In this document: one piece after another, positions 5,119 to 26,122 of the stretch
Layout of the letters: each line of letters starts with the position of its first letter
Numbering within the stretch: the first letter of the stretch is position 1
DNA from: a virus
Lineage: Duplodnaviria > Caudoviricetes
Virus record (IMG/VR): IMGVR_UViG_3300025132_007241
Span: 1 to 61,389 of that record
Direction: 5' to 3' (one strand)
Length of the DNA stretch: 61,389 bases
Translations under genes and position numbers: made by a program
Notes under the pieces: model-generated
Told to the model about the DNA's origin: nothing
Seen by the model: the letters and a program-made list of their open reading frames with translations, nothing else
The model's database searches: none

Positions 5119-6369
5119 ATGTCAGAAAAAATTAAGATCTTTACGATCGGTGACCACCCTCTTTCTCCTTCGGGGGTGGGAACACAAACAAAATATATTA
5201 TCGAAGGAATGCTCAAAACTGGTAAGTATGAATTCATTTCGTTTGGGGGCGCCATCAAGCACCCCGATCACAACCCACAGAAAACGCAAGAATGGGGTGA
5301 CGATTGGGTGATTTGGCCAGTTGATGGATATGGCAACGCGGACATGGTTCGAGCTATGATTCACCAACAGAAGCCAGACATCCTGTGGTTCATGACAGAT
5401 CCACGTTTCTACGGGTGGCTCTGGTCAATCGAGAATGAAGTTCGAGCACATGTCCCCATGGTTTACTACCATGTGTGGGATAACTATCCTTATCCCGACT
5501 TCAATCGTAATGCATATTTGTCAAACGATCATATTGCATGTATCTCAAAGCTGACATACGATATCGTACAGACTGTCACGCCCGAAGTTGAGTCGTCCTA
5601 CATTCCGCATGCCGTAAACTCAGAGCTGTTCAAACCCCTAGACATTCCTCAGATCGCCGAGATCCGCACAGATCAGGGAATAGATGACAAGTTTGTAGTA
5701 TTCTGGAATAATCGTAATGCTCGTCGAAAACAGTCCGGGAGCGTCATTTTTTGGTTTAAGGAGTTTTTAGACCGAGTCGGTCATGATAAAGCATGTCTTA
5801 TTATGCATACAGACGTTAAAGATGTTCACGGTCAGGACCTGGAAGCTATCATTGCTAATCTGGGACTCACTAATGGAGAAGTGATGTTCTCCCGTCAGAA
5901 AGTGGAACCCCACAACTTAGCCGTGATGTATAATATGGCAGACGTTACAATTAATATAGCGGACGCCGAAGGCTTTGGGCTTGCAACGCTAGAGTCCCTG
6001 TCTTGCGGGACACCCATCATCGCCACGATGACCGGAGGTCTGCAAGATCAATTAACTGATGGAGAAAACTGGTACGGAATTCCAATATACCCAGCTTCAA
6101 GAGCAGTTATTGGATCTCAAGAGGTGCCTTATATTTATGAAGATCGGGTCGCCAAGGACGATGTCGTAAACGCATTAGTTGAGATGTATGAAATGGGTAG
6201 CGAAGGACGTTCCGAACTAGGGGCACGAGGTAGTGAGTGGGCGCGTACCACCTTTGGTTTTGAGACATTCATGGACAGTTGGGACGAACTGTTTACCAAG
6301 ATACACGAGACACAGGGCTCGTGGGATACACGCAAGGGATACACACCCTACGAAGTTAGGACTTTTTAA
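5119..6369 (+). CDS. Glycosyltransferase, GT-B fold (GT4-like)
   Basis: SGVG, IPHAVN, NRNARRKQ, EGFGLATLESLSCGTPII (ExFGxxxxE); start MSEK after AGGA. Confidence 0.9.
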   Translation: MSEKIKIFTIGDHPLSPSGVGTQTKYIIEGMLKTGKYEFISFGGAIKHPDHNPQKTQEWGDDWVIWPVDGYGNADMVRAMIHQQKPDILWFMTDPRFYGWLWSIENEVRAHVPMVYYHVWDNYPYPDFNRNAYLSNDHIACISKLTYDIVQTVTPEVESSYIPHAVNSELFKPLDIPQIAEIRTDQGIDDKFVVFWNNRNARRKQSGSVIFWFKEFLDRVGHDKACLIMHTDVKDVHGQDLEAIIANLGLTNGEVMFSRQKVEPHNLAVMYNMADVTINIADAEGFGLATLESLSCGTPIIATMTGGLQDQLTDGENWYGIPIYPASRAVIGSQEVPYIYEDRVAKDDVVNALVEMYEMGSEGRSELGARGSEWARTTFGFETFMDSWDELFTKIHETQGSWDTRKGYTPYEVRTF

Positions 6370-7623
6370 ATGAAAAAGAATATTTTGCTTAAAGGACCAC
6401 TGTTGTCCCGCTCTGGTTATGGAGAACAGGCACGATTTGCACTTCGAGCCCTACAGAGCCGACCTGAGTTGTTTGAAATTTATGTGCTAAATATCAACTG
6501 GGGTCAGACCGGTCATCTGACCACACATGATGAAGAGCACCAGTGGATCCTTCGCAGAATCCAGGAGACAGCTGTCTTTGCACAGCAAGGAGGTACTTTT
6601 GATATCTCTATCCAGGTTACGGTGCCCAATGAATTTGAAAAAATTGCTCCAGTTAATATTGGATATACAGCGGGCATTGAAACGACGAAGTGTTCGGGGC
6701 AGTGGATTGAGAAGATTAATGCATTCGTTGAACGTGTAATCACCATTTCGGCACACTCGCAAAAGGTGATGGAAAATACGACGTACGATGTAAAAGACCA
6801 ACAAGGTAATGAGATCAAAGACTGGGGAATTAATGTTCCCGTAGATTATGTAAGCTACCCCCATCTTGAAACAGAGCCCGAACCTTTAGAGTTGAACATA
6901 GATACAACGAATAACTTTCTTGTCGTCGCTCAGTGGTCGCCTAGAAAAAATCTGGAAAATACCATAAGATGGTTTGTAGAGAAGTTTGCTGAGGATCCTA
7001 CGGCTGGTCTCGTTCTTAAGACTAACACCGCCAGTGATAGTATTCGCGACAGGGAGTTCACATCCCAGCGCCTTCAAGCACTGCTTGAAGCGTACCCGCA
7101 GAGGCAGTGTAAGATTCACTTAATTCACGGTGAACTCACCCCAGGCAATTTAGTCTGGCTGTATCAGCATCCTACAATGAAGGCTCTTATCAACATCGGT
7201 CATGGCGAAGGTTTCGGGTTGCCAATGTTTGAGGCGGTATGTAATGGCTTGCCGTTGATCACCATAACGTGGAGCGGACAGCTTGATTTCATCACCAAGC
7301 CAAACAAAAGCAAGAAAGCAGTGCCTAGGATTATTAAGGTAGACTATGACCTAGCTAAGGTCCAGGACCATGCTGTTTGGCCGGGAGTTATTGAGGCAGA
7401 TTCTATGTGGGCTTATGCTCGCGAGGCATCGTTTAAACGCGCCCTCGGGGACGCACTGGAAAAAGAAACTCACTGGAGGAAGGAAGCTGCAGCACTGCAG
7501 AAGCATGTGCTGGGCAAGTTCACTAGTGAGAACATGTATGCCGACTTTGTAAGGCAGGTTTACGACCCATCGCCCGAGGAGATCGAATGGTTATCTCAAA
7601 TGGAAGACATTCAGATTCTGTAG
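6370..7623 (+). CDS. Glycosyltransferase, GT-B fold (GT4-like)
   Basis: SRSGYG, QWSPRKN, HGEGFGLPMFEA. Confidence 0.88.
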   Translation: MKKNILLKGPLLSRSGYGEQARFALRALQSRPELFEIYVLNINWGQTGHLTTHDEEHQWILRRIQETAVFAQQGGTFDISIQVTVPNEFEKIAPVNIGYTAGIETTKCSGQWIEKINAFVERVITISAHSQKVMENTTYDVKDQQGNEIKDWGINVPVDYVSYPHLETEPEPLELNIDTTNNFLVVAQWSPRKNLENTIRWFVEKFAEDPTAGLVLKTNTASDSIRDREFTSQRLQALLEAYPQRQCKIHLIHGELTPGNLVWLYQHPTMKALINIGHGEGFGLPMFEAVCNGLPLITITWSGQLDFITKPNKSKKAVPRIIKVDYDLAKVQDHAVWPGVIEADSMWAYAREASFKRALGDALEKETHWRKEAAALQKHVLGKFTSENMYADFVRQVYDPSPEEIEWLSQMEDIQIL

Positions 7624-8459
7624 TGTCGGTGCTATTCCTCGCTGATTTCTTCAGCGACCAGATCAACGGTGGGGGCGAGAACAATGATGCTGTCCTCATC
7701 GCTGATCTGCGTCAGAGGGGAATTTCAGTTGAAAAGGTTCACTGCCAAGCGGTCACGGTTGATCAACTACATGCAGCTGATACGGTTATAGTTTCAAACT
7801 TTGTTACTCTTGCATCGACGCATAGGGAATATATTACCGACAATTGTGATTACATCATTTATGAGCATGACCACAAATATGTAACAACGCGTGATCCCTC
7901 GAAGTTCGTAAACTTTATGATTCCTCCACAACATATTATCAACAAGATGTTCTATCACCGTGCACGAAAAGTGATTGTACTCAGTGAAATTTGCAAAACT
8001 GTCATGGAAAATAATTTGGGTAATACCAACGTCCACTCGATTGGTAGCAGCTTGTGGTCGAAAGAGAAATTCACATTTTTGCGTGAGTGCCCAAAGAACA
8101 AGACAAAAGGCGTAGCTGTGATCGATTCTAGCAACCCGACCAAGGGTAGGGCTGCAGCGATAGCCACTTGCGAGAAAAAGAACATAGAATTTGATCTTGT
8201 CTCATCACCTGATCAATATGAATTTCTCAAGATATTAAGCGAGTATAAATCATTGTTATTTGTCCCTCAAGTGTTAGAGACCTTTTGCCGATTAATAGCA
8301 GAAGCAAAGATGTTGGAATGCCAGGTTTACACTAACGGAAAATTAATTGGCATGATGAGCGAGCCATTTGCACAACAATCCGGACTTGAATTAATCGAAA
8401 CCCTGGAAGGTCAGGTCACTAGCGCCTTGGATTATTTTTATGAGTTGGTAAAAAAATGA
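7623..8459 (+). CDS. Glycosyltransferase-like protein (compact GT-B)
   Basis: GGGE, YEHD, KG, ETFCRLIAEAKML (ExxxxxxxE); likely GTG start at 7623. Confidence 0.65.
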   Translation: MSVLFLADFFSDQINGGGENNDAVLIADLRQRGISVEKVHCQAVTVDQLHAADTVIVSNFVTLASTHREYITDNCDYIIYEHDHKYVTTRDPSKFVNFMIPPQHIINKMFYHRARKVIVLSEICKTVMENNLGNTNVHSIGSSLWSKEKFTFLRECPKNKTKGVAVIDSSNPTKGRAAAIATCEKKNIEFDLVSSPDQYEFLKILSEYKSLLFVPQVLETFCRLIAEAKMLECQVYTNGKLIGMMSEPFAQQSGLELIETLEGQVTSALDYFYELVKK

Positions 8460-9316
8460 TTTTAGTGACAGGCGCCGCAGGATTTATAGGACAAAGCTTA
8501 GTCGACCATCTAGGCACCCGCGCCGTGATTTGCGCCGATCCCTCTGATTCAAATATGTTAACACCGGAAGAGGCTTTACGCCGTCTGGAGTTTACTGACG
8601 ATATCACCGTGGTATATCATATGGGCGCCATATCTTCTACTACAGAAACAAATATGTTGGCGCTCACTGAAAATAATGTTGCTTATAGTCTCAAACTTCT
8701 GTATCTTTGCCTCGATAAAGACATTCCCTTTGTTTATGCCTCTTCCGCATCGGTGTATGGCGCTGCCACTGGAACTCAGCGAGAGGACCAACCACACGCC
8801 CCCATTAACGGATACGCTATAAGCAAGTCGACCTTTGACAACTTTACGCATCAGATAATCTCACTATATCCAGACGCCAAAGTGTATGGGCTTAGGTATT
8901 TTAACGTTTATGGTCATCACGAACATCATAAGGGCAATATGGCGAGCCCTGTGCACAAATTCACGATGCAGGCAAGAGATACAGGTAAGATCCAGATTTT
9001 TGAGGGTAGCGAAAACTATCTTCGTGATTTCATTAATATTGAAGACGTAGTAAAAATTACCATTGAAGCAAGCAACCTCGCGCAAGCTGGTGTTTATAAC
9101 GTAGGAACAGGAGTCGCTCGATCGTTCCTAGATGTGGCTAAGATAATCGCTGCTGAGACGGGGGCGGAAATTGAGGAAATCCCCTTCCCAAACCATCTCA
9201 AAGGTAGATATCAGACCCACACCTGCAGCGATAACACAAAAATTGCGGACAATGGCTACACTCACCCGCGCCTCGATCTAGAGACTGGAATTAAAAACAC
9301 CCTGGCTTTGATATGA
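8456..9316 (+). CDS. hldD: ADP-L-glycero-D-manno-heptose 6-epimerase
   Basis: TGAAGFIG, GAISSTTE, YASSASVYG, YAISK, LRYFNVYG, HKGNMAS, RDFI, IPFP..LKGRYQ. Confidence 0.88.
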   Translation: MILVTGAAGFIGQSLVDHLGTRAVICADPSDSNMLTPEEALRRLEFTDDITVVYHMGAISSTTETNMLALTENNVAYSLKLLYLCLDKDIPFVYASSASVYGAATGTQREDQPHAPINGYAISKSTFDNFTHQIISLYPDAKVYGLRYFNVYGHHEHHKGNMASPVHKFTMQARDTGKIQIFEGSENYLRDFINIEDVVKITIEASNLAQAGVYNVGTGVARSFLDVAKIIAAETGAEIEEIPFPNHLKGRYQTHTCSDNTKIADNGYTHPRLDLETGIKNTLALI

Positions 9317-9711
9317 CAACAGTTTTTATTAATGGCTGTTTTGATATCTTGCATCGAGGTCACCTAGAATTGTTTAAATATGGTGCCTCCCTGGGTACTA
9401 CTCTCGTCGTTGCAATCGATTCAGACGAAAAGGTCAGAGCAGCCAAAGGACCAGATCGTCCTGTTAACAGTGTAGAAGATCGAAAGTTTATGTTATCCTC
9501 ATTACGATACATCGATCAGGTCGAAGTGTTTAACACACCAGAAGAGCTTGTCGCACTAGTAAAACAAACCGCCCCTGATATTATGATTGTAGGATCAGAT
9601 TGGCAAGGTAAGCATATTGTTGGCGGAGAGCACGCCAAAAAGATTAAGTATTTTGAGAGAATAGATGGATATTCCACAACCAAAATCATTCAAAGTATTA
9701 GTGATAGGTGA
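9313..9711 (+). CDS. hldC: Heptose 1-phosphate nucleotidyltransferase (HldE C-terminal domain, RfaE2)
   Basis: NGCFDILHRGH, KGPDRPVN, VGSDW, RIDGYSTT. Confidence 0.9.
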   Translation: MTTVFINGCFDILHRGHLELFKYGASLGTTLVVAIDSDEKVRAAKGPDRPVNSVEDRKFMLSSLRYIDQVEVFNTPEELVALVKQTAPDIMIVGSDWQGKHIVGGEHAKKIKYFERIDGYSTTKIIQSISDR

Positions 9712-10435
9712 TGCCTGCACAGATCGGTATTATTATGGGGACTGCACACGGCTAAGTCCAGAGGCGCCTGTGCCCGTTTTGAAGCACTTATACACTGAAG
9801 AGCGCCTAGGCATGTGTTTGAACGTTGGAGCCAATCTAAAGGCTCTGGGCGCCTCTGTAGACGTTTTAAAGAATGACGAAATGATCTATAAGGATCGCTT
9901 TGTCGACGTCAAAACAAAACAGCATCTTTTAAGAGCGGATTTCGGTGAAAGCAAAGCAGTGATACCGATGGATACGTCCTGTCTTAATGTAAATTCATAT
10001 GACGCTGTCGTGGTATCAGATTATGATAAAGGATTCGTTAGTCGAACAGCAGCCGTTGAAATATCAACAAAATGTAACGAAGCTAAAATTCCGCTGTTTG
10101 TGGATTCCAAGAAAAAGAAATTAACTTGCTATGAACACTGTTTCATCAAAATAAACGAAAAAGAAAGAAACGAACTGCATTCATATTCTAAAACGGCAGA
10201 CCTAATTGTGACCTTGGGCGCAAAGGGGGTAGAGTGGGCAGGCACGGTGTACCCCACAACAGAATGCGAAGTGTTTGATGTGTCGGGTGCAGGCGATACT
10301 TTCCTTGCTGCGCTGGTGCATAAATATCTTGAAACCAAAGATACACCCACAGCGCTTAAATTTGCTAATGATTGTGCTAGAATAGTAGTACAAAAGTTTG
10401 GCACCTATTGCCTAAAGCCAGGAGATCTTACATAG
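9665..10435 (+). CDS. hldA: Heptose 7-phosphate kinase (HldE N-terminal domain, RfaE1; PfkB family)
   Basis: RLSPEAPVPVL, VSDYDKG, VDSK, VTLGAKG, DVSGAGDTFLA. Confidence 0.88.
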   Translation: MDIPQPKSFKVLVIGDACTDRYYYGDCTRLSPEAPVPVLKHLYTEERLGMCLNVGANLKALGASVDVLKNDEMIYKDRFVDVKTKQHLLRADFGESKAVIPMDTSCLNVNSYDAVVVSDYDKGFVSRTAAVEISTKCNEAKIPLFVDSKKKKLTCYEHCFIKINEKERNELHSYSKTADLIVTLGAKGVEWAGTVYPTTECEVFDVSGAGDTFLAALVHKYLETKDTPTALKFANDCARIVVQKFGTYCLKPGDLT

Positions 10436-10765
10436 ATGAACTATGTATTTGATATAGATGGTACAATTTGTACCACCACAGAGGGGAACTATGAGACAGC
10501 TAAACCTCTCGCTGATCGTATTGCGATCGTTAATGCTCTTTATGATGAGGGGCACACAATTATTTTCCAAACGGCTCGTGGAATGGGGCGTAGCGATAAC
10601 TCTGTTGCCTATGCAAACACTGCATTTTATGAGTTAACAAAACGGCAGTTGAACAACTGGGGAGTTAAGTATCACTCTCTATTTTTAGGAAAACCAGCAG
10701 GAGATATATACATCGATGACAAAGGAATTAAAGACAAAGACTTCTTTGCCCATGAAACACGTTGA
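10436..10765 (+). CDS. Small HAD phosphatase (capsule biosynthesis phosphatase-like; candidate GmhB substitute)
   Basis: FDIDGTIC, TARG, GKP, YIDDK. Confidence 0.8.
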   Translation: MNYVFDIDGTICTTTEGNYETAKPLADRIAIVNALYDEGHTIIFQTARGMGRSDNSVAYANTAFYELTKRQLNNWGVKYHSLFLGKPAGDIYIDDKGIKDKDFFAHETR

Positions 10766-11093
10766 TAAAGGTTGGGGCTGGGAACGTTGGATTGTTAACT
10801 GTGAAGAATATTGCGGCAAACTCTTGTTTTTCAATTCTGGAAAGCGGTGTTCGTGGCACTACCATGTATTGAAGGACGAGGTATTCTATCTACAATCCGG
10901 TAAGATGATGATATACTTTTCCGAACAGGATGATATCACTAAGGCTGAGCAATTAGTTTTAAACGCCGGGGACAACTTCCATGTTTACCGCGGCTTACGT
11001 CATCAGATGGTGGCTCTGGAAGACTCGGAACTATTTGAGTTTTCGACACAACATTTTGACAGCGATAGCCATCGTGTCATAAAGGGTGATTAA
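10716..11093 (+). CDS. Cupin-domain protein (sugar-phosphate isomerase-like)
   Basis: KGWGWE, SWHYHVLKDEVF, RHQM cupin metal ligands. Confidence 0.8.
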   Translation: MTKELKTKTSLPMKHVDKGWGWERWIVNCEEYCGKLLFFNSGKRCSWHYHVLKDEVFYLQSGKMMIYFSEQDDITKAEQLVLNAGDNFHVYRGLRHQMVALEDSELFEFSTQHFDSDSHRVIKGD

Positions 11094-11789
11094 ATGACAA
11101 CAGAAATGGACTGGTTCCTGGAGAACCTCAGGACAAAAACTCCTTTTGGCTACGCGCGGTTTAACGATGGCGAGATGATGGCAATCGACCAGATTGGATC
11201 TGTAGTTGCCCGTGGCGATCAGGTTGTAGACGAGTCTTTACACAATGCGCTCAACGAAGCCATTATTCACAAACAAGAGCGTTACTATATTGGTATCCCT
11301 TGTTCATTATGTTACCCACGCCTTGCAGCTCTTGCCCACGAAGTAGTGGGTGACTACGACTATCTAACAAGCGCCGTCGCAACAACAAACAGAAATTGGA
11401 AGCATTTTATTACGTCTTTCCCGGCTGCAATGGAAGGTCGCCGGCTCGTATGGGTGGGAGGTAATGACCAGAACCCCGATGCAATTCGTGATTTAGGAAT
11501 TACTGTAGGGAAAACGGCACTTGTCCCGCGCAAAAACAGCTGGAAATTCTATGACAAGATTCGCCAGGCGCTTCCCGAACACTTCCAACCGGGAGATGTG
11601 GTGGGCATATCACTAGGACCAACTGCGAGGATCCTTGTTAGACAATGGTTTGAGGAGTTCCCGGATCTCACATTTATCGATATGGGTAGCAACCTTGATC
11701 CATTTACGCGCAACGTGCGTCACAATTGCCACAAGGGCTGGGACGAGACTGGATTTAACCTGACTAAGCGCTGCCCGGAGTGCAACTAA
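11094..11789 (+). CDS. GT-D fold (DUF1792-like) glycosyltransferase, putative
   Basis: ARFNDGE, SLGPTARIL, IDMGSNLD motifs. Confidence 0.6.
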   Translation: MTTEMDWFLENLRTKTPFGYARFNDGEMMAIDQIGSVVARGDQVVDESLHNALNEAIIHKQERYYIGIPCSLCYPRLAALAHEVVGDYDYLTSAVATTNRNWKHFITSFPAAMEGRRLVWVGGNDQNPDAIRDLGITVGKTALVPRKNSWKFYDKIRQALPEHFQPGDVVGISLGPTARILVRQWFEEFPDLTFIDMGSNLDPFTRNVRHNCHKGWDETGFNLTKRCPECN

Positions 11790-11790
11790 C

Positions 11791-12519
11791 ATGAGAATTT
11801 ACCTTTCTACTTCGAACAAATACAATGTTCTCTGTCCTATCAATATTCATTTTTTGAATAAGTATTGGCCTGGGCAAGACATCACATTGGTCGGGTATGA
11901 AAAGGTACTCGAACTAAAAGATCTCCCGGATAATGTAACAGTCCATAGCCTCGGTAACCAAGACAACTTTGGAAAGACATGGACGAACGCCCTTATTCCA
12001 TTCTTTCGCGATATCCCGGAAGAATATTTTGCTTTAATCCTGGACGATCAGGTGTTGGCGCACCCAGTAGATCAAAGTAAAATGGATCTTCTAGAAAAGT
12101 ATTTCAAGTTTGGCAGAGCAGAAAAAGCTATGATTGGGGGAGGTGTGCAATTCTCGGACGGTAAAAGAATTGGAAATGACTTAGTTGAAATTCGCCAGGA
12201 TGTCCCGTACAGAACGTCACTACACCCGGCTATTTGGAAGAAAAGTTATTTTCTCAAGTACCTAAAACCTAATTTTACTTCATGGGATTTTGAATTAAAA
12301 AATGAAGCCCGTAATGACCAAGCCAGAATTTTAAACTTTGATTATGATTACCCCAATGAGCCCCATCCCTATTGCAATGTGGAACTCTACAATAAGGGAG
12401 AGATCACAATCAACAGTGCAGGAGAGACGATTACCAATCAACCGTCGACCCCATTCTTCAAGAAAGAAGACTTAAAATATATGTGGGACGAAATCCACAA
12501 AGAAGGAATCAAGATATGA
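11791..12519 (+). CDS. Glycosyltransferase-like (GT-A) hypothetical protein
   Basis: ILDD, YRTSLHPAIWKK, SWDFE; position in glycan locus. Confidence 0.5.
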   Translation: MRIYLSTSNKYNVLCPINIHFLNKYWPGQDITLVGYEKVLELKDLPDNVTVHSLGNQDNFGKTWTNALIPFFRDIPEEYFALILDDQVLAHPVDQSKMDLLEKYFKFGRAEKAMIGGGVQFSDGKRIGNDLVEIRQDVPYRTSLHPAIWKKSYFLKYLKPNFTSWDFELKNEARNDQARILNFDYDYPNEPHPYCNVELYNKGEITINSAGETITNQPSTPFFKKEDLKYMWDEIHKEGIKI

Positions 12520-17872: not shown

Positions 17873-18846
17873 ACATTGAAGATTTTGAAAGAAAATATAA
17901 CGCTATCGTGAATAGCGAGCAGTTTGCCCAACTGCAAGAAACATATAACAAAGCCAAGTACGTGTTTTTCTTTGGACATGGTGGTAATATGGGCGTGGCA
18001 GAACACGCCGCTATTGATCACTCTCGCCTCACAGACAAGAATGTATTCGCCCCAGGAGGCGGAGTCATTGTGACATCAATCCAGGGTGACACCAGCTTTA
18101 ATGACTGGATCATGAACTGGCTAGATATTCGTACTCGCGGATTAGAAAAGAGCGAGTGCTTGGCTATTGGAATTTCGTGCTCCACCAACGGTATCTCCTC
18201 GGATTGCCTCTCTACTGCGCTGAACTGGGCTGCAGAAAACGGCATGCAAGCGTGTCTCTGGGCTGCGCAGCCGAAAGAAAAGGGCATCCACCCGCAAGTC
18301 AATCAGATTATCCAGCACACCAAATACTACCATACTTCGGAGATTATTTCTCTAACGATGACATATGAGTTGATTCATGGTGCCGGATTTATGTGCCCTG
18401 CAATCTCGACCAAAGCCCAGCAGCGTCGGTTTGAAAAGCTAGGGATTGAATCTGAGGTCGAAACCCACAATCAGCACGTTCCACCCGGCATGGAGACCCA
18501 ACTCAACAATTTGGCCATTGACTTCGATGGAGTTATTCATAACTTTGATAAGGGCTGGCACGATGGCACCTGCTATGGTGATCCCCTGCCCGGAGCACTG
18601 GATGCCATCCGCACACTGGCTGAGGACTGGAACATTATCGTCTTCTCTGCAAAGGTTCGCCCTGATCGACCACTAGTTGGCGGGAAAACAGGATACGAGC
18701 TGGTGGATGAATGGCTACAGGACCACGGAGTTCGTGACTTAGTCGCTGAAATTACTCATGAAAAGCCACGCGCTCAACATTATATTGACGATAAGGCTAT
18801 TGAGTTTACCAATAACTGGACTGAGATTCTGGAGCGCCTACAGTGA
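17866..18846 (+). CDS. SIS (GmhA-like sugar-phosphate isomerase) plus HAD phosphatase fusion
   Basis: N-terminal FFGHGGNMGVAEHAAIDHSR and IGISCS (GmhA-like); C-terminal IDFDGVI, SA, EKP, YIDDK (HAD). Confidence 0.75.
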   Translation: MLDIEDFERKYNAIVNSEQFAQLQETYNKAKYVFFFGHGGNMGVAEHAAIDHSRLTDKNVFAPGGGVIVTSIQGDTSFNDWIMNWLDIRTRGLEKSECLAIGISCSTNGISSDCLSTALNWAAENGMQACLWAAQPKEKGIHPQVNQIIQHTKYYHTSEIISLTMTYELIHGAGFMCPAISTKAQQRRFEKLGIESEVETHNQHVPPGMETQLNNLAIDFDGVIHNFDKGWHDGTCYGDPLPGALDAIRTLAEDWNIIVFSAKVRPDRPLVGGKTGYELVDEWLQDHGVRDLVAEITHEKPRAQHYIDDKAIEFTNNWTEILERLQ

Positions 18847-19508
18847 AAAGCATTACAGCTGTTGTACCTGTACGCAAGGGATCGGTAAGAGTAAAGAATA
18901 AGAATCTTAAACCTTTTGCTGGCAAAACACTTCTACAGATTAAGGTTGAGCAGTTAAAGCAAGTAAGCCTTATTGATAACATTGTCGTAAGTTCTGATTG
19001 TGATGACATGCTAGCCCTAGCAGCGGAGCTAGGAGTTAATACCCACCGTCGCGTTGATTACTTTGCTTCATCAGAGGCAACAAACTCAGAGTTCTTTGAA
19101 AATCTGGGGCAAGCCATTGAGGGTGACTATCTCATGTATAGTCCCGTGACTTGCCCTTTGATCTCATTGGAAACATATCATGATTGCATCTCAACCTTCC
19201 AACAGGATGAGGAGATGGAAAATCTAGTAACAGTTACCGCTGTGAAGCATCACCTGTGGTTGGACAACGAACCGTTAAACTATGATGTCACTAATTCCCC
19301 CAACAGTCAGGACCTTCCTGATATCTATGCCATCACTTATGGTGTTTGTATTATTTCCCGCGACGATATGATCGCTCGCCGCAATATCGTGACCCCAAAC
19401 CCTACCTTTAAAGTACTCGATGAAATTGAGTCTGTTGACATCGACACCGAGTTTGATTTTATGGTGGCGGAGATGATCTACAAGAAAATAAATAACTTGA
19501 CATTCTGA
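18843..19508 (+). CDS. Acylneuraminate (nonulosonate) cytidylyltransferase, NeuA/PseF-like
   Basis: VPVRKGSVRVKNKN, VSSD, TCPL, SQDL, SVDIDTEFDF. Confidence 0.88.
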   Translation: MKSITAVVPVRKGSVRVKNKNLKPFAGKTLLQIKVEQLKQVSLIDNIVVSSDCDDMLALAAELGVNTHRRVDYFASSEATNSEFFENLGQAIEGDYLMYSPVTCPLISLETYHDCISTFQQDEEMENLVTVTAVKHHLWLDNEPLNYDVTNSPNSQDLPDIYAITYGVCIISRDDMIARRNIVTPNPTFKVLDEIESVDIDTEFDFMVAEMIYKKINNLTF

Positions 19509-19525
19509 GGGTGAGGTGCTATATT
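19497..19525 (+). promoter_or_regulatory. Near-consensus sigma70 promoter with extended -10
   Basis: TTGACA (19497-19502), 17 bp spacer, TGc-TATATT (19520-19525), followed by GAGG SD and ATG 19544; the largest intergenic gap within the glycan locus. Confidence 0.8.
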
Positions 19526-19543
19526 CTTTAGAGGAAAAAGACT

Positions 19544-20182
19544 ATGAAACACAATCCATACCAAGTTATTACTAATTTTGAGGAGATCGTAGCAGAATAC
19601 TGCGGCTCTAAATATGCTGTTGCTGTTGATAACGCAACCAACGGTTTGTTCCTGTGCTTAAAGTACTTAGGAATTGAAGACCAAGACATTACCATCCCGG
19701 CTGTCACATTTATGTCGGTACCCTGCACCATCATTCAGACAGGAAACCGCGTCAGCTTTGATAAGAATCACCCGGCGATTATTGATGGTAAGAGACTCCG
19801 CGGACAGTATCAGCTGGCACCCTTCCCAGTTTGGGACAGTGCTCTCACATTTCATCGCGACATGTATATTCCAGGGCAGTTTATGAACCTTTCGTTTAGT
19901 GGTCCTCACAAGTTTTTAAAGTTGGGCAAAGGGGGAATGATTCTTACTGATGACAAAGAAGCGCACACATGGCTCAAGCGAGCTGCCTACTTTGGTCGCC
20001 GTCCTATGGACCATAAAGAAGAGAAATTTGATATGCTTGGGTGGAACTACTACATGCTCCCAGAGATAGCGGCACGAGGTGCTGTATTAATGTTGGGAAT
20101 AAAAGATGATAATAAAGATCTTGAAATTGAATACCAAGACCTATCTAAATATAAAGTATACACGGAGGCAAACCGCAAATGA
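19544..20182 (+). CDS. Compact DegT-family aminotransferase (212 aa)
   Basis: YAVAVDNATNGL, IPAVTFMSV, WDSA, LSFSGPHKFLKLGKGGMILTD, GWNYYM. Confidence 0.8.
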   Translation: MKHNPYQVITNFEEIVAEYCGSKYAVAVDNATNGLFLCLKYLGIEDQDITIPAVTFMSVPCTIIQTGNRVSFDKNHPAIIDGKRLRGQYQLAPFPVWDSALTFHRDMYIPGQFMNLSFSGPHKFLKLGKGGMILTDDKEAHTWLKRAAYFGRRPMDHKEEKFDMLGWNYYMLPEIAARGAVLMLGIKDDNKDLEIEYQDLSKYKVYTEANRK

Positions 20183-21558
20183 AGGTCGTTCTAATTCAAC
20201 CATATTACGAAAACATCTGGGAACCCATTGGTTTGGGTTTCATCTCAGCTTATCTTAAGAAGCACTACGAAGGAGAGCTGGATCTTTGTTGCTATCAGGG
20301 CAACTTTGACACTGATGAGGAGATCATCGAGGGGTGCACTGGCGCCGATGTGGTCGGGTTCTCTTGTACCTCCCCGGCTTGGCCTCATGCATTGCGGTTG
20401 GCTGAAGAGATTAAGAAAGTTAGCCCGGACACTCGCACAGTGGTCGGGGGATTCCACCCGTCTGCGCTTCCAGAGGAAAGTGTAGCCCACGATTGTATTG
20501 ATCAAGTAGTAGTCGGCGAGGGCGAAGAGGTTTTCCTTGATATTGTCAATGGCAACACAGATCCCATCGTTCAGGGGACAAAGCCTGCAATGCAGGATCT
20601 TCCTTGGCCAGATCGCTCAATTATTAAGAACTATCGCACCGTCGACCTTTGTGAGTCGATGAACGGTACTCGAACTGCCTCATTCCAGTGCAACCGGGTT
20701 TGCCCTGTGGCGTGCACCTTTTGCGCAGAACGCATTATTACTGGTAAGCATAATCGCCGCGATAATCCAATTCGTTCTCGGGACGTTAGTGAGTTGTGCG
20801 ACGAGATTGAGCATGTTATTGAAGAGCTGGATCTCACATATTTTAAGTTTGTAGATGCTACTTTTGATATCTCAGCAGACTTTGTTATTAGATTTTGCAA
20901 GGAGAAGATTAAGCGTGGTATTACCACAGAGTGGGAATGCCTGGTGCATGCTAGTTTTGCAACTGAAGAAATGTTTGAATGGCTCAAGAAAGCTCAGTGT
21001 AACCGAGTTGCCATTGGCTGCGAAAGCGGCTCCGACCGCATTTTGAAGCGCGTCGGTAAGGGACTAAAAGTTGATACAATCCGTAAAGTCTTTGCATGGG
21101 GACGAAAGCATGATGTCGAGCGCCGAGGTTTCTTCCTGCTGGGAATGCCTGAGGAAACCCGCGAGGACTGGTTGCTCACAGAACAGTTGATTGATGAAAT
21201 CGAACCCGATGTGGTTGGCTTCACAATTCTCTGCCCATATCCAGGTACCCATTACTATGATCCGCAGCTGCATAAAAATGTAGACTGGGAGAAGGCTGAC
21301 GAGTATTCTAATGATTTCTGGGCTACACCGCACTTTACTAACATTGAACTCAAAGCCAAGCAGGCATACTTTAAGACTAAGTATGACCTCTTACTCAATG
21401 AACGTCAGTTCGGCGAAGGATCCACATCGGCTGGTGCAACAGATATGCGTGAGCTAGAAAAAGAGTCGTTCTCGACACCAATTGGCACCAACGTCAATAA
21501 CGCACCAGACATTGCTGGTGTTGTCCAGCTTGATACTAGTAAAAGAACGGAAGCCTAA
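20179..21558 (+). CDS. Cobalamin-binding radical SAM enzyme (class B methyltransferase-like)
   Basis: EPIGLGFIS, VVGFS, VVGGFHPS, GEGE, CPVACTFC (CxxxCxxC), GCESGS, GMPEET, PYPGT. Confidence 0.9.
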   Translation: MKVVLIQPYYENIWEPIGLGFISAYLKKHYEGELDLCCYQGNFDTDEEIIEGCTGADVVGFSCTSPAWPHALRLAEEIKKVSPDTRTVVGGFHPSALPEESVAHDCIDQVVVGEGEEVFLDIVNGNTDPIVQGTKPAMQDLPWPDRSIIKNYRTVDLCESMNGTRTASFQCNRVCPVACTFCAERIITGKHNRRDNPIRSRDVSELCDEIEHVIEELDLTYFKFVDATFDISADFVIRFCKEKIKRGITTEWECLVHASFATEEMFEWLKKAQCNRVAIGCESGSDRILKRVGKGLKVDTIRKVFAWGRKHDVERRGFFLLGMPEETREDWLLTEQLIDEIEPDVVGFTILCPYPGTHYYDPQLHKNVDWEKADEYSNDFWATPHFTNIELKAKQAYFKTKYDLLLNERQFGEGSTSAGATDMRELEKESFSTPIGTNVNNAPDIAGVVQLDTSKRTEA

Positions 21559-21875
21559 TGACCCATGTGGTGGGGGATGCTTGCGTAAAATGTAGATATA
21601 CTGACTGCGCAGAGGTATGCCCGGTCACTTGTTTTCATGGCGCCCCGAATATGTTGGTTATCGACCCCGAAGTTTGCATAGACTGTGGGCTTTGCCTCCC
21701 GGAGTGTCCTGTGGACGCCATCTATCTGGATGATGACGTACCAGAAGATCAAATAGAATACATTCAGATCAATGCTAAGTTATCGCAGCAGTACGACATT
21801 ATAGAATACGCAGAAGATCCGCATCCTGAGGCGGACAAATACAAGGACGTTAAAAACAAGAAAGACTTAATTTAG
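21558..21875 (+). CDS. fdxA: 7Fe ferredoxin ([3Fe-4S][4Fe-4S], Azotobacter FdI type)
   Basis: CVKCRYTDCAEVCPVTCFH..LVIDPEVCIDCGLCLPECPVDAI. Confidence 0.92.
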   Translation: MTHVVGDACVKCRYTDCAEVCPVTCFHGAPNMLVIDPEVCIDCGLCLPECPVDAIYLDDDVPEDQIEYIQINAKLSQQYDIIEYAEDPHPEADKYKDVKNKKDLI

Positions 21876-22829
21876 ATGAATATTTTAGTAACAGGCGGAT
21901 GTGGGTTTATTGGCTCCAATCTCATTAAATTTATATTAGAAAGCAATTTTCCCGAAGTGGACCGGGTAGTGAATCTTGATGCAGTGACGTATGCTGGCGA
22001 TATCAGCAATACTGCTGCCTTCGCCGATCATGAAAACTATTTCTTTGAGAAGGTAGATATCCGTGACACTGCGCGCCTATGGAGTGTGTTTAGTAGACAT
22101 GATATTACTCATGTAATTCACCTCGCAGCTGAGTCTCACGTCGATAATGCGATTGCGTCTCCGGGCGCGTTCATGACAAGCAACATCATTGGTACTCACA
22201 ATCTACTCAAAATCTCCCGTGAGCTGGAAATTAAGAGGTTTCACCATGTCTCTACCGATGAGGTTTATGGCGAGCTGGGGGAAACTGGAACGTTTGATGA
22301 GGAGACACCGTATGATCCTCGTAACCCCTACTCAGCGTCCAAAGCAGCATCAGACTTTATTGTACGCTCTTACTTCCACACATATGACTTCCCAGTGACT
22401 CTATCTAATTGTTCGAATAACTATGGGCCGCACCAACACGACGAAAAATTAATCCCCACAGTGATTCGTTCAATATCCCGCGGCAACAAGATCCCCGTTT
22501 ATGGCAAAGGTCTGAATGTTCGCGATTGGATTTATGTAGGAGATCACTGCGAGGGGATCTGGAAAGTCTTTACCGAAGGGGCATTGGGTGAAACCTATTG
22601 TATTGGGGCTAACTGTGAGCGTCGTAACATCGACTTAATTCATATATTGTGTAAGGAGATGGGGGTATCCCCTGAGGAGTCGATCGAGTATGTTAAGGAC
22701 CGTGCAGGACATGACTTTAGATATGCCATTGACAACAAAAAAATTGTAGAGAAGTTAGGCTGGAAGCCTAAGACTTCTTTTGAGGAAGGGCTGAAGCAAA
22801 CAGTAGCATGGTACAATGAGAAATATTAA
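21876..22829 (+). CDS. rmlB: dTDP-glucose 4,6-dehydratase
   Basis: TGGCGFIG, TYAG, HLAAESHVD, STDEVYG, YSASKA, CSNNYGP, EKLIP, RDWIYV, DRAGHDFRY. Confidence 0.95.
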   Translation: MNILVTGGCGFIGSNLIKFILESNFPEVDRVVNLDAVTYAGDISNTAAFADHENYFFEKVDIRDTARLWSVFSRHDITHVIHLAAESHVDNAIASPGAFMTSNIIGTHNLLKISRELEIKRFHHVSTDEVYGELGETGTFDEETPYDPRNPYSASKAASDFIVRSYFHTYDFPVTLSNCSNNYGPHQHDEKLIPTVIRSISRGNKIPVYGKGLNVRDWIYVGDHCEGIWKVFTEGALGETYCIGANCERRNIDLIHILCKEMGVSPEESIEYVKDRAGHDFRYAIDNKKIVEKLGWKPKTSFEEGLKQTVAWYNEKY

Positions 22830-23538
22830 AGGTATTATTTTAGCTGGTGGCAAGGGAACACGTTTATATCCCTTAACCAAGGTTACAAACAAGCATCTGC
22901 TTCCTATCGCTGGAGAGCCGATGATTTATTATCCACTGCGCAAGTTAATTGAGGCAGGGATCGATGACATTATGATCGTGACGGGGGTGGAGCATAGTAC
23001 GGGTGTGACCGCTCTACTGGGTTCTGGACATGAACACGAGTGTTCACTCACCTACCGAGTCCAAGACCAGCCAGACGGCATCGCAGGGGCTCTCAGACTG
23101 TGTAGGAACTTTGTGGGAGATGATGCATGCGTAGTCCTTCTGGGCGACAACATCTTTAAAGATAATCTAAAAGAGCACGTTACAGATTTTATTCATGGTG
23201 AAGAGGATTGCAAACTGTTCTTCAAAAGAGTGACGGATCCCCGCCGTTATGGTGTTGGGACCTTCAAAAAGGACCGTCTCGTGGGACTAGAAGAAAAGCC
23301 CGAGGTGCCTAAGTCAAATTTGGCATGCGTAGGAATTTATTTCTACAGCAGCAATGTCTTCGACGCAATTGATAAAGTTGAGATGTCGGACCGAGGCGAG
23401 TTTGAAATTACCAGTGTTAATAATCTTTTTATCGAAAACAAATCCTGCGGACATGCTATTCTAGAAGATGTCTGGTCTGATGCTGGTACCATGGACTCAT
23501 ACCACAATACTAACTGGCTGATGTATCAAGAGAAATAA
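22816..23538 (+). CDS. rmlA: Glucose-1-phosphate thymidylyltransferase (short form)
   Basis: GIILAGGKGTRLYPLT, NKHLLP, QDQPDGIA, LGDN, EEKP, RGEFEIT, WSDAGT. Confidence 0.93.
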   Translation: MRNIKGIILAGGKGTRLYPLTKVTNKHLLPIAGEPMIYYPLRKLIEAGIDDIMIVTGVEHSTGVTALLGSGHEHECSLTYRVQDQPDGIAGALRLCRNFVGDDACVVLLGDNIFKDNLKEHVTDFIHGEEDCKLFFKRVTDPRRYGVGTFKKDRLVGLEEKPEVPKSNLACVGIYFYSSNVFDAIDKVEMSDRGEFEITSVNNLFIENKSCGHAILEDVWSDAGTMDSYHNTNWLMYQEK

Positions 23539-23539
23539 A

Positions 23540-24247
23540 ATGAAACTGCTGTTAACTACACGCGCTGATGGAAATAGTATTGAATGGGCCAAGCTGGTTC
23601 ATCCGATGTTTCAACAATACGCGCACAGAATAGGTGCAGACTTTCTAGTCCTAGATGAAGCAACAGACGCCCATGATGCCACAGGAGGCATTGGTAACGG
23701 AGTGTACCAGTATCGCATTATGAAGCATTACGATCTTCACGAGCATTACGATAGAATTATAGCGCTGGACACAGATATGATTCTGACTCCGTCACTTCCC
23801 AGTTTATTTGACGTAGTGCCCTACGATTGTGTTGGGTCGATCTATGAGGACGTAGGTTCCCGCGCTCCCCAGCGAGTTGGTTGTATGCGCAATGCACAAC
23901 GACAATTCGGGGACATTGGGTGGACCTCCGGGTACATTAACACAGGAGTTTTTGTTACATCAAAATGCCACAGGGATATTTATAGAAAAATAAACGATCA
24001 GTACTTTGTGGCATGGGGCACTGATGATATCCATATTGGATATTTGATCAACAAGTATGGATATAAAGTACATGAGCTGTCATATCATTTTAATCATATG
24101 ACAATGTTTTCTGAGCCGTGGAATGGTTCACCGGACCGGTTTGATTCGCACATTATACATTATGCAGGCGGGGGAGTATTCGAACCTGGAGTCGCAAGCA
24201 ATAAGCTGCACCAAGCTCAACTAGATTATGAGAGGTTATACGGATGA
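23540..24247 (+). CDS. Glycosyltransferase, GT-A (GT8/GT34-like)
   Basis: LDTD (DxD), YINTGVF, FNHM, IIHYAG. Confidence 0.8.
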   Translation: MKLLLTTRADGNSIEWAKLVHPMFQQYAHRIGADFLVLDEATDAHDATGGIGNGVYQYRIMKHYDLHEHYDRIIALDTDMILTPSLPSLFDVVPYDCVGSIYEDVGSRAPQRVGCMRNAQRQFGDIGWTSGYINTGVFVTSKCHRDIYRKINDQYFVAWGTDDIHIGYLINKYGYKVHELSYHFNHMTMFSEPWNGSPDRFDSHIIHYAGGGVFEPGVASNKLHQAQLDYERLYG

Positions 24248-25056
24248 GTAAATTAATAGTAGGACCCTGGGTGGGGGAGTTCGGATGGGAACTCTATGCA
24301 TGGCAAGGATATATTCGTGCTCTATCAAGAAACTTTGAACATACCACAGTGATCTCTCGCCCGGGCTCAGAGGCTCTGTATAGTGATTTCTGCGATATGT
24401 TTGTCCCATGGAATCCCACAGGGGGCTTGACGGATTCTTTCTTTATGCATGATGTTGACGTCAAAAAAGAGTGGATGCACGCAGTTAAATCTGCTAAGAT
24501 CCCCCTGTCTAAGGAGACCACCGTTTTCACCCCCCGTCGTCTAGGATTCCCACCCCACACTCACTACGAGCAATTTTTGATGATCGGCAATTATATGATT
24601 GCCCCAGAGTATATTACATATGGCAAGAAAGCAGAACGCACCTATGACTACATTTTTCATGCGCGCAGTCGTCCGCTTCGCCCTCAAGATAATTGGTCAA
24701 TCGAAAACTGGAACGAACTAAAAAATTTATTGGGAGATAAGCGGATCGCATGCATTGGCACGACAGCCGAGTCAGCCTTAATCGAGGGGGCTGATGACCT
24801 GCGTGATTTGCCATTAGGCGAGCTTTTTGACTTATTACATAACGCCGAATGTGCTTTCGGACCGTCTTCTGGACCAATGCATCTAGCTAGCCTCTGTGGT
24901 CTGCCGCATATAGTTTGGTCAATTCCGGATAACAAGATTCGATACGAGACGAACTGGAATCCCCTCCAGACACCAGTACTCTTTGATAGCACTGCAGACT
25001 GGCATCCAACTGCAGCTTACATACATGATGTCTTTACAAAGTGGAATCATGAATAA
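24244..25056 (+). CDS. GT9 (heptosyltransferase)-like glycosyltransferase
   Basis: GEFGWEL, NWSIENW, DLR, FGPSSGPMHLASLCGLP (GT9 C-terminal signature). Confidence 0.75.
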   Translation: MSKLIVGPWVGEFGWELYAWQGYIRALSRNFEHTTVISRPGSEALYSDFCDMFVPWNPTGGLTDSFFMHDVDVKKEWMHAVKSAKIPLSKETTVFTPRRLGFPPHTHYEQFLMIGNYMIAPEYITYGKKAERTYDYIFHARSRPLRPQDNWSIENWNELKNLLGDKRIACIGTTAESALIEGADDLRDLPLGELFDLLHNAECAFGPSSGPMHLASLCGLPHIVWSIPDNKIRYETNWNPLQTPVLFDSTADWHPTAAYIHDVFTKWNHE

Positions 25057-25912
25057 GATTCTGGTCACGGGTGGCGCAGGCTTTGTAGGCTCCTGTCTAA
25101 TTCGTGAACTGATCAAAGATCCAACTAACCTCATTACGTCCCTAGACAATTACTTTACCGGCACAGAGGATAATCACGTTGACGGTGTGTGTTATGTGCG
25201 GGGCGACTGTCGTAATATTGACGAACTCATTACTTTCACTCCAGATGTCATATATCATTTTGGAGAATACTCCCGGGTCGCCACCAGCTTTGAGGACTAT
25301 GATACAGTATGGGAATCAATCATTGCTGGCACACATGCAGTTCTGAATTTTTGTCGGTCTAGAGGCTCCAGGCTAGTTTATTCAGGGTCAAGCACTAAGT
25401 TTGGCGACGGGGGTAAGAACAAGAATGCGTCTCCGTACGCCTTTCATAAATCACAGAACACTGACACTATTGTCAATTACGCCGAGTGGTTTGGCATTGA
25501 TTATGCAATATGTTATTTTTACAATGTTTATGGTCCTGGTCAAATCTGTACAGGAAAGTATGCAACGGTAATTGGTATTTTTGAAACACAAGTAAATAAT
25601 AACCAACCCGTGAGTGTGGTATTACCTGGTACACAGAAGAGAAGTTTTACCCATATTAACGATATAGTGAGCGGACTGCTGCTACTTAAGGACGCTGGCA
25701 CTGGAGATGGATATTGCATTGGCAATCCGCATGAATATGAAATTAATCAAGTAGCTAAAATGTTTAGCAACAATGTAGTATACTTAGAGGAGCGACCCGG
25801 AGAGCGTCATGAGTCTGAGATCAATTTGACTAAAATGAAAGCTCTTGGGTGGGAACCTAAATATAATCTAAAAGACTATATTCATTCAAGGAGAAAAAAT
25901 GATGAAACTTAG
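25049..25912 (+). CDS. NAD-dependent epimerase/dehydratase
   Basis: TGGAGFVG, DNYFTG, GEYSRV, GSSTKF, YAFHK, FYNVYG, RSFTH. Confidence 0.88.
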   Translation: MNKILVTGGAGFVGSCLIRELIKDPTNLITSLDNYFTGTEDNHVDGVCYVRGDCRNIDELITFTPDVIYHFGEYSRVATSFEDYDTVWESIIAGTHAVLNFCRSRGSRLVYSGSSTKFGDGGKNKNASPYAFHKSQNTDTIVNYAEWFGIDYAICYFYNVYGPGQICTGKYATVIGIFETQVNNNQPVSVVLPGTQKRSFTHINDIVSGLLLLKDAGTGDGYCIGNPHEYEINQVAKMFSNNVVYLEERPGERHESEINLTKMKALGWEPKYNLKDYIHSRRKNDET

Positions 25913-26120: not shown

Positions 26121-26122
26121 GA

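Follow-up and report, generated by a model that had tools for sequence, protein, structure and literature searches.

Gene content of the island

The stretch of DNA analysed here, referred to below as the window, is the complete IMG/VR record IMGVR_UViG_3300025132_007241, a linear 61,389 bp fragment of a tailed phage (Caudoviricetes) with a CheckV completeness of 39%. Our subject is an island of sugar-related genes at 5119-25912, which an initial annotation made from the sequence alone had taken for a candidate virion glycosylation system. Between 5077 and 25912 there are 27 co-directional open reading frames (ORFs) on the + strand, with alignment A2 setting the first start at 5119. ORF ends overlap or abut throughout, the sole gap being one of 36 nt (19508-19544); the contiguity claimed initially is thus upheld, while the count of 26 genes is revised to 27. 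Families were assigned by Pfam and NCBIfam profile searches, with bit scores compared to family cut-offs.

Three genes at the left end are predicted, from sequence and structural modelling, to be glycosyltransferases (GTs) of the GT4 type, that is, GT-B folds carrying a C-terminal E-x7-E, as the C-terminal motif of retaining GT-B enzymes (GT4) is named. The first, GT4-1 (5119-6369, + strand), is of retaining type, exceeds the cut-off for Glycos_transf_1 (48 bits) and for GT4-conflict (29.5 bits; cut-off 26), and has an invariant motif at E284..E292 (alignment A2); its best solved relative is the chlorovirus NY-2A protein B736L (3oy2, 1e-10). GT4-2 (6370-7623, +) gives weak Pfam GT4 matches, below cut-off, but its profile matches GT-B structures, the top PDB match again being B736L (3oy2, 1.7e-5), and E280..E288 is invariant (alignment A3). 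The third is a compact protein of 290 aa (7587-8459, +) with neither a Pfam nor a PDB sequence match, for which the AlphaFold model (pLDDT 90.9) has a GT-B fold and E231..E239 is invariant (alignment A4). Foldseek relates this model to a GT4 enzyme (2jjm), T4 alpha-glucosyltransferase (AGT, 1y8z) and GtfC (9hu9) at E ~1e-7, T4 AGT ranking second in a list of hundreds of GT-B folds that score about alike. We considered whether GT4-1 and GT4-2 could form a GtfA/GtfB-like GT4 pair, in which one partner is active and the other dead, and dropped this reading because both keep the invariant E-x7-E.

Judging from family matches, an ADP-heptose-type cassette appears to follow at 8456-11093 (+). It comprises an HldD epimerase (8456-9316; NCBIfam heptose_epim, 271.6 bits against a cut-off of 274.6), a split HldE whose domain II adenylyltransferase (9313-9711; rfaE_dom_II, 1.6e-32) and domain I kinase (9665-10435; rfaE_dom_I, 2.2e-48) are separate ORFs, a HAD phosphatase (10436-10765; EcbF/BcbF phosphatase, 3.3e-11) and a cupin (10716-11093; Pfam Cupin_2, 27.0 bits, just below the cut-off of 27.2). 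Family searches recognised no GmhA isomerase or SIS domain in the island, the sole pointer being an Atlas score of 0.89 for a SIS domain, a lead only, in a 326-aa ORF without family at 17866-18846 (+). The phosphatase and cupin (10436-11093) are the most widely shared of the variable genes, occurring in 16/24 and 11/24 of the related islands described below. That the cupin is 83% identical to the cupin of one relative, G024, though the backbone proteins of G024 are only ~60% identical, points either to a cassette that spread recently or to strong constraint.

The cupin is followed on the same strand by a GT-D glycosyltransferase (11094-11789; PF08759, 31.9 bits, cut-off 27; best PDB match 4phr, GalT1/DUF1792, 0.003), a 242-aa ORF without family (11791-12519) and an amino/deoxy-sugar cassette (12483-16509). 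The cassette consists of an Fcl-like short-chain dehydrogenase/reductase (SDR; start 12483, GDP-fucose-synthase-like, 1.2e-43), a full DegT aminotransferase that is PseC/ArnB-like (start 13439; DegT 1.7e-92, PseC 7.7e-73), a weakly SDR-like ORF (start 14569), a 95-aa Mpo1-like ORF with two transmembrane segments (15281-15568; 5.5e-28) and a GalE/dehydratase-like SDR (start 15562). Next come an S-adenosylmethionine (SAM) methyltransferase (16509-17150), a 240-aa ORF (17150-17872), the 326-aa ORF already mentioned and a PseF-like cytidylyltransferase (18843-19508; 4.9e-21). The 240-aa ORF had been called Maf-like, yet its match to the MptE/Maf family PF01973 (26.5 bits) is below the cut-off of 34.6, and Maf flagellin transferases are of ~600 aa with flagellin-binding domains. 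Its model (pLDDT 91.7) fits CstII sialyltransferases (2x61/1ro7) as well as Maf (5mu5), with a Pasteurella multocida sialyltransferase (9c08) also among the Foldseek matches (E ~6e-4, TM-score ~0.45), and is suggestive of a CMP-sugar-type transferase.

The remainder of the island (19544-25912, +) resembles a dTDP-sugar and C-methylation cassette. A short DegT-like ORF (19544-20182, 212 aa), whose match is confined to the N-terminal portion of the aminotransferase profile, precedes a B12-binding radical SAM enzyme (start 20179; B12-binding 5.9e-19, Radical_SAM 7.7e-18) with a FdxA ferredoxin beside it (start 21558; 137.7 bits, cut-off 135). These are followed by RmlB (420.6 bits, cut-off 365.1), RmlA (2.4e-64), a GT8-like ORF (23540-24247), a weakly GT9-like ORF (24244-25056; PF01075, 18.3 bits, cut-off 22) for which an Atlas lead points to one viral cluster with GT9 on 14% of its members, and a last SDR (start 24983). 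Because the short DegT-like ORF is kept in 12/24 islands and gp172 of Flavobacterium phage immuto is similar in size and annotation, it seems to be a conserved short form and not a broken gene. PDB sequence searches with four unassigned ORFs gave no usable match.

The enzyme inventory of the initial annotation was therefore right overall, with small corrections. Its three nucleotidyltransferases (9313, 18843 and 22816) and two methylating enzymes (16509, and the B12-binding radical SAM enzyme at 20179 with FdxA at 21558) stand, whereas its six SDRs become five solid ones (8456, 12483, 15562, 21876 and 24983) and a weak one (14569), and its two aminotransferases one full DegT protein and the short form. 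Among the proposed GTs of varied folds, the three GT-B/GT4 genes and GT-D are borne out, GT9 is weak and the Maf-like gene falls below cut-off. Two GT-A genes had also been listed: the ORF at 23540-24247 gains from GT8 (PF01501) being present on 18 of its 120 listed homologues, but among the 46 homologues of the family-less one at 11791-12519 no Pfam family is represented.

A fixed slot with variable content

Related loci were collected from IMG/VR with the nuclease adjoining the island as query, which gave 150 stretches, 80 of them kept. The nuclease is followed by GT4-1 in 78/80 loci, GT4-2 is found in 77/80 and the third GT-B gene in 48/80 (tblastn), while most other island genes are found in 0-15 of the 80. 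Islands were then compared in 24 larger relatives (G022 was left out, having the same coordinates as G024, and the identical G005 and G006 were counted once). In all 24 of these uncultured relatives the same order recurs: PD-(D/E)XK nuclease (in the window at 4331-5110, +; Pfam PF12705, 1.9e-12), two GT4 genes, variable genes, and a late-sigma-like gene (26666-27361, +; phrog_234 late sigma factor, 1.2e-5). In the synteny check proposed with the initial annotation, the slot is thus filled in 24/24. The distance from nuclease to late-sigma-like gene is 9.9-24.0 kb in these relatives and 21.6 kb in the window. Near-complete relatives measure 165-203 kb, which makes the 'jumbo' label used initially a borderline one. 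The right anchor (25899-27361, +), which also matches phrog_1076, consists of a small ORF, an FmdB-like zinc-ribbon protein, a small membrane ORF and the late-sigma-like gene, present in 19, 23, 23 and 24 of the 24 islands respectively.

What lies between the anchors is much less stable. The 24 intervals contain 641 + strand ORFs at full coding density, falling into 238 protein clusters; all 24 islands share the nuclease, GT4-1 and sigma-like clusters and 23/24 the GT4-2 cluster, whereas 158 clusters are confined to one genome and 39 occur in two. By this strict clustering the third GT-B gene is present in 9/24 islands. Where GT4-1 identity is 70-85% (86 genome pairs), the Jaccard index of variable clusters averages 0.11 (range 0-0.82), and the window has 20/28 clusters in common with G003 and none with G008. 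Island content is decoupled from the backbone, and gene turnover is fast. Of the 202 cluster representatives absent from the window, all but the 52 shortest (150 in total) were surveyed, and the 25 commonest families of each survey show glycan chemistry throughout, those listed including SDR epimerases, GT2, GT1/4, FkbM methyltransferases, radical SAM proteins, NeuB/PseI synthases, CMP-transferases, sulfotransferases and GT10/GT11 fucosyltransferases. A search for relatives with the 476-aa lysin-like protein of the window found none.

Cultured relatives and distribution among prokaryote genomes

The order nuclease-GT4-GT4-glycan genes is also present in two cultured phages, Flavobacterium phage immuto and Microcystis phage Mel-JY01, with the GT homologues in tandem. 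In immuto the nuclease is followed by a small ORF, two GT genes and then ~9 kb of GT2, aminotransferase, methyltransferase, epimerase and further GT genes; Mel-JY01 is similar. GT4-1, though not GT4-2, has a homologue in Rhodothermus phage RM378 as well. A megablast of the island against cultured phages gave no match. At the protein level the GT4 pair is ~31-34% identical to its immuto and Mel-JY01 counterparts, and the gp6-like baseplate protein is 28-31% identical to those of the same phages, so the divergence of the pair is on a par with that of a core structural gene. In this, as in its near-constant presence in the islands, it behaves like a core phage gene.

Two peptide patterns were also run against 185,579 GTDB genomes, one per prokaryote species, a procedure that distant cellular homologues could escape. 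Eleven loci were recovered (L153-L163), all in the order phoH-nuclease-GT4, on contigs carrying at least seven unrelated taxon labels, and these contigs are probably mis-binned phage DNA. The bins concerned are labelled Pelagibacter, Maricaulis, Woesearchaeota, Flavobacteriales, WOR-3, Gammaproteobacteria and Neomarinimicrobiota. One locus is embedded in the 2.85-Mb 'chromosome' of a WOR-3 metagenome-assembled genome (MAG), where it may reflect either a mis-join or true integration. With 11 mis-binned loci in phage gene order under so many labels, MAG labels are uninformative on the host, and we rejected a host assignment based on them.

Integrity of the contig

Since many of the island genes bear bacterial family names, one alternative is that the window is an assembly chimera, in which a bacterial polysaccharide locus has been misjoined to phage DNA. 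Several observations stand against this. GC content is even (0.43-0.50) and the long ORFs of the window are all on the + strand. In the likely source run, which holds 0.97 of the stretch (all other public runs hold small shares only), an independent Logan assembly has a 17,079-bp contig covering 7400-20390 and reaching 4,088 nt further upstream, and a second contig of 6,662 bp covering 20586-27247; both island ends are therefore crossed. The slot is, moreover, occupied in every one of the 24 relatives and in the two groups of cultured phages. The contig is a genuine phage fragment, and the chimera, which had been named initially as grounds for abandoning the proposal, is so improbable that we regard it as refuted. 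Phage marker genes of the window include gp25-like and gp6-like baseplate wedge, late-sigma-like, lysin-like, resolvase, primase, PIN-PhoH and PD-(D/E)XK nuclease genes.

Membrane and export functions

Bacterial hypervariable O-antigen and capsule loci encode their own Wzx/Wzy or ABC genes. The island resembles such loci in that nucleotide-sugar synthesis genes stand together with several GTs, but the polytopic proteins that are their hallmark (initiating transferase, flippase, polymerase, ABC permease) were found neither in the window's island nor among the 641 ORFs of the 24 islands. In a Kyte-Doolittle scan no island protein of the window is polytopic, hydrophobic segments being limited to the Mpo1-like protein and one borderline Rossmann N-terminus, and none of the 641 ORFs has three or more hydrophobic segments. 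The initial claim that export genes are missing and the enzymes soluble accordingly holds, here and in the relatives, and this supports a complex glycan being made in the cytoplasm without export genes of its own. Elsewhere in the relatives that are at least 91% complete (G006, G011 and G024), the sole polytopic proteins are ones without a Pfam family. Two large proteins of this kind, of 1099 aa with 14 hydrophobic segments (G006, 25982-29281) and of 912 aa with 7 (G024, 144365-147103), have no counterpart in the window.

The absence of exporters had also been used to argue against a host-surface product, and here the argument is weak. Soluble or peripheral GTs build the glycans of the lipooligosaccharide (LOS) or lipopolysaccharide (LPS) core on lipid A-core, and MsbA, a housekeeping flippase, moves them across, so a missing Wzx, Wzy, ABC transporter or ligase does not exclude the host surface.

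Promoters and expression class

Two sigma-70-type promoters at 3136-3268 (+; sites 3136, TTGACA-16-TACAAT, and 3240, TTGACA-17-TATAAT, the latter 12/12) lie within the 3' end of phoH and are directed at the nuclease and island. The pair recurs with the same hexamers and in the same place in G006 (125635, 125531) and G011 (132876, 132772), and G024 has a 12/12 sigma-70 site directly upstream of its nuclease. A further promoter of this type (19497-19525, +; TTGACA-17-TATATT with TG) is situated in the only intergenic gap of the island, and internal island promoters are likewise present in G006 (112264), G011 (123390, 119590) and G024 (48250, 52837, 63267, 63645). Sites scoring at least 11/12 exceed the shuffle mean on the coding strand (window 5 against 0.7, G006 22 against 1.3, G011 33 against 1.8, G024 29 against 3.4) and are scarce on the antisense strand (0, 1, 0 and 4 respectively); at a threshold of 9/12 there is no enrichment (41 against 37.3), so that the signal is confined to the class of at least 11/12.

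The downstream baseplate/fibre module of 33-40 kb has no site of at least 11/12 in the window, G006 or G024, and one in G011. Instead, the motif ACTATTTA(T/A) occurs 25-45 nt before start codons of the structural module (33/200 upstream regions, an 11-fold enrichment), including in the window those of the gp6-like gene and of the gene at 56681 (motif positions 37319 and 56656), and also in G006, G011 and G024; it is a candidate late promoter for a gp55-like sigma factor. The T4-type late promoter TATAAATA was tried as well and proved uninformative, with 6 matches against 2.6 expected, one of them on the + strand. From these patterns the island would be early-class and the adjoining virion module late-class, and the proximity of the two, which had been read initially as a link to virion genes, is thus not a sign of co-regulation. 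In an oligo-dT marine RNA-seq run, four exact 151-nt contigs map to 19278-20247, beside the internal promoter; so few matches are no basis for asserting transcription, and they may stem from carried-over DNA.

The acceptor of the glycan

Taken together, the gene content and promoters lead us to infer that the island is an early-expressed glycan factory of this phage lineage, acting within the infected cell. Host sigma-70 RNA polymerase would transcribe it from the phoH 3'-end and internal promoters. The enzyme families present would then provide an ADP-heptose-type sugar, dTDP-4-keto-6-deoxyhexose derivatives that are C-methylated by the B12-binding radical SAM enzyme with its ferredoxin and subsequently reduced, a 4-amino sugar and a CMP-activated ulosonic acid, an O-methyltransferase being also available. 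The three left-end GT-B enzymes, two of which are conserved in the lineage, may start the chain on the acceptor, with the variable GT-D, GT8-like, CstII/Maf-like and GT9-like enzymes adding strain-specific sugars. By analogy with chloroviruses and some mycobacteriophages, the acceptor could be the phage's own, most probably a virion protein (or several) that receives O-linked glycans in the cytoplasm ahead of assembly, and fast cassette exchange would give each strain a surface glycan of its own, a kind of serotype.

That the acceptor is a protein of the phage itself, probably of the virion, we regard as having a chance close to, though short of, even. Phages whose hosts belong to different phyla keep the GT4 pair in one order, which would be surprising if the acceptor were host-specific; among GTDB genomes the pair is found in phage context only; and for both GT4 proteins the best solved relative is chlorovirus B736L. 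A phage-own acceptor is further favoured by the GT-D gene, since its solved relatives are known only from the glycosylation of serine-rich adhesins, and by the lack of a cognate Wzx/Wzy gene in any of 24 diverse islands. The soluble GTs encoded by the virus are as seen in virus-encoded virion glycosylation. Early expression is compatible with such an acceptor because soluble GT genes of chlorovirus PBCV-1 are described as early (PMC9614988). We extend this tentatively to a fuller picture, in which an abundant marine myovirus lineage coats its virions with a strain-specific glycan: the GT4 pair primes a virion protein, and exchangeable cassettes for heptose, C-methylated deoxysugars, nonulosonic acids, fucose and sulfate diversify the coat as fast as bacterial O-antigens do.

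Several points weigh against a virion acceptor. No virion protein is shown or predicted to be glycosylated in this analysis; of the virion-glycan proposal made initially, cytoplasmic synthesis without exporters is sustained and virion proteins are a candidate acceptor. A Thr/Pro-rich C-terminal tail on the 3194-aa protein of the window, the one sequence hint of an acceptor, was considered as a conserved site and rejected, not being conserved in G006, G011 and G024. Comparison of island content with baseplate and fibre-like proteins in 14 genomes revealed no convincing coupling (Mantel r 0.01-0.30; best p 0.019 and 0.033, uncorrected for 15 tests and not significant after correction; the test for 27340-27645 had 2 genomes only and so no value), this test covering baseplate and fibre-like proteins, with capsid and tail-tube genes lying outside the window. 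GT4 enzymes act also on lipids and small molecules, and the top NCBIfam matches of GT4-1 are BshA, MshA and sucrose-phosphate synthase, with scores far below the family cut-offs. That the island lies among early promoters and away from the late structural genes suits remodelling of the host at least equally, and the ADP-heptose route with the GT9-like, GT8-like and CstII-like genes is also LOS/LPS-core chemistry.

The last two points belong to an alternative that we consider serious if rather doubtful, namely LOS/LPS-core-type remodelling of the host envelope. Here lipid A-core or a lipid-linked host intermediate would be extended at the cytoplasmic face and exported by host MsbA/Lpt or a flippase, and the changed surface would block superinfection and the adsorption of progeny to infected cells or debris. 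The pieces of a core pathway found in the window are both HldE domains, the HAD phosphatase and HldD, the last slightly under its cut-off; there is no GmhA/SIS match beyond the Atlas lead. To these can be added the weakly GT9-like ORF, the CstII-like fold, and homologues of the GT8-like ORF that are named 'lipopolysaccharide biosynthesis glycosyltransferase' in their sources, while the relatives contribute NeuB, CMP-transferases and GT10/GT11 fucosyltransferases; Campylobacter/Helicobacter-type LOS/LPS loci hold such a repertoire without an exporter. Consensus early promoters fit a function needed soon after infection. Remodelling is the long-standing reading of the sugar clusters of cyanophages P-SSM2 (PMC1079782) and S-SCSM2R (PMC12801897), as these are presented there, and chloroviruses too are reported to alter the host surface early (PMC9614988). 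Such remodelling is hard to square with the retention of the GT4 pair in phages of both Bacteroidota and Cyanobacteria, and with its being found in phage context only. The inner cores of these two phyla differ. Island content is also uncoupled from the fibre-like proteins expected to track host strain, and very diverse glycans would all need to pass through host export machinery.

Alternatively the product might be soluble (for instance a small molecule bearing sugars, a compatible solute or an oligosaccharide in free form) and reprogramme host metabolism, in agreement with the small-molecule GT4 enzymes being the best family matches of GT4-1. We think this unlikely, given how far these scores fall below the cut-offs and given that at least six GTs of different folds, together with extreme cassette turnover, point to a surface-exposed oligosaccharide.

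Less likely still is hypermodification of DNA, with sugars on a modified base blocking restriction. Phage clusters of HAD/kinase, cytidylyltransferase and GT-B genes have been described as placing heptose, di-heptose and Kdo on 5-hydroxymethylcytosine (10.1101/2023.12.21.572611), the model of the third GT-B protein matches T4 AGT (among many other GT-B folds), and the island adjoins nuclease and phoH genes amid early promoters. However, searches with working controls detected no ThyS-like hydroxymethylase (PF00303), C5 methylase (PF00145) or PF13640 oxygenase in the window or in G006, G008, G011 and G024 (91%, 82%, 100% and 100% complete, respectively), where TGT/DpdA was not found either. Tet_JBP (PF12851) was not matched in the window or relatives either, with the positive control silent too. 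In addition, the DNA of immuto_2-6A, which has the same gene order, is given as dA, dC, dT and fdPreQ1 by liquid chromatography with UV and mass detection, with no glycosylated nucleoside among the results reported there (10.1101/2023.04.13.536721). The initial annotation had mentioned DNA as an alternative acceptor; with the base-hydroxylating enzymes not found in five genomes this alternative is weak, and its improbability in turn favours a phage-own protein.

Comparison with known glycan systems

P-SSM2, with a cluster of 24 genes, made large sugar clusters known in marine myoviruses as early as 2005 (PMC1079782); what the island adds is the comparative pattern and the two cultured phage groups. 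S-SCSM2R has a cluster of 22 genes, 13 of them GTs, and S-SCSM1 is described as a T4-like cyanophage with such a cluster too (PMC12801897). The island is like these cyanophage 'LPS' or cell-wall clusters, which in the accounts cited occur in lytic marine myoviruses and bring together at least 20 epimerase, transferase and sugar-synthase genes, a change of the host surface being the usual guess. It belongs, however, to another lineage (its nearest isolates, immuto and Mel-JY01, show ~30% identity), and is set apart from them, on features other than gene homology, by one fixed slot behind the GT4 pair, O-antigen-like turnover over 24 genomes and predicted early promoters.

Chlorovirus capsid glycosylation (PBCV-1 A064R, NY-2A B736L) offers a parallel in its soluble, cytoplasmic, early GTs and its methylated and rare sugars (PMC9614988). 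The differences are a eukaryotic host and N-linked glycans on the major capsid protein, while the island is known from its genes alone, and as far as that account goes the acceptor of B736L itself is not established in chloroviruses (PMC9614988). In mycobacteriophages, as cited in PMC12619734 (Freeman et al., 2023), virion proteins are O-glycosylated by the phage's own GTs. Clusters for DNA glycans described by Pyle et al. share sugar-activation genes with GT-B enzymes and heptose/Kdo chemistry (10.1101/2023.12.21.572611), but the enzymes of base hydroxymethylation or oxidation are not found in our near-complete relatives and the island is far larger.

In its layout the island resembles the LOS classes of Campylobacter jejuni, where hypervariable content lies between conserved GT flanks with no exporter, and where heptose, sialic-acid-like sugars and CstII-type, GT8 and GT9 enzymes are found. 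It differs from them in being a locus of a lytic phage and in having GT4 genes as the conserved flank, not the heptosyltransferases waaC/waaF. Mycobacteriophages that glycosylate their virions are not known to use more than a few GT genes, nor a large nucleotide-sugar island.

In one widespread lineage, then, a sugar cluster is a fixed feature of the genome, amounting to about a tenth of it, and not occasional cargo. A conserved pair of priming type joined to a rapidly exchanged, O-antigen-like part implies strong diversifying selection on the glycan. If virion proteins are the carrier, phage particles would have serotypes, with a bearing on adsorption, decay, grazing and host sensing at sea, and there would be an arms race, so far overlooked, in which the particle itself is the target and host sensors, decoys, grazing or adhesion to particles are the driving forces. 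Because immuto and Mel-JY01 have the same gene order, the choice between virion, host envelope and DNA can be tested in culture.

Other features of the window

Upstream of the nuclease, and outside the island, a cytidylyl/adenylyltransferase-like gene (1599-2087, +; phrog_7878, 1.1e-16; rfaE_dom_II, 53.9 bits, well under the cut-off) is kept in 67/80 related loci and may supply an activated donor. A 203-aa ORF at 3727-4338 is conserved in 80/80 loci, its zinc-metallopeptidase-like matches being sub-threshold only. The left end of the contig carries six tRNA genes (Thr, Ala, Val, Pro, Gly and Asn; 24-677 and 1504-1579). Between them, at 705-1493, is an arginine dihydrolase/dimethylargininase-like gene (NCBIfam 5.4e-71, under the equivalog cut-off), rare in relatives (4/80 loci) and possibly an auxiliary gene of nitrogen metabolism.

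The giant 3194-aa protein (40663-50247) contains two Laminin_G_3 (ConA-like lectin) stretches. Its tail of ~110 aa is rich in Pro, Thr, Ala and Gln and ends in an RGG-like run. Homologues in relatives are of 3727-4325 aa with differing tails, that of G024 also ending in an RGG-like manner.

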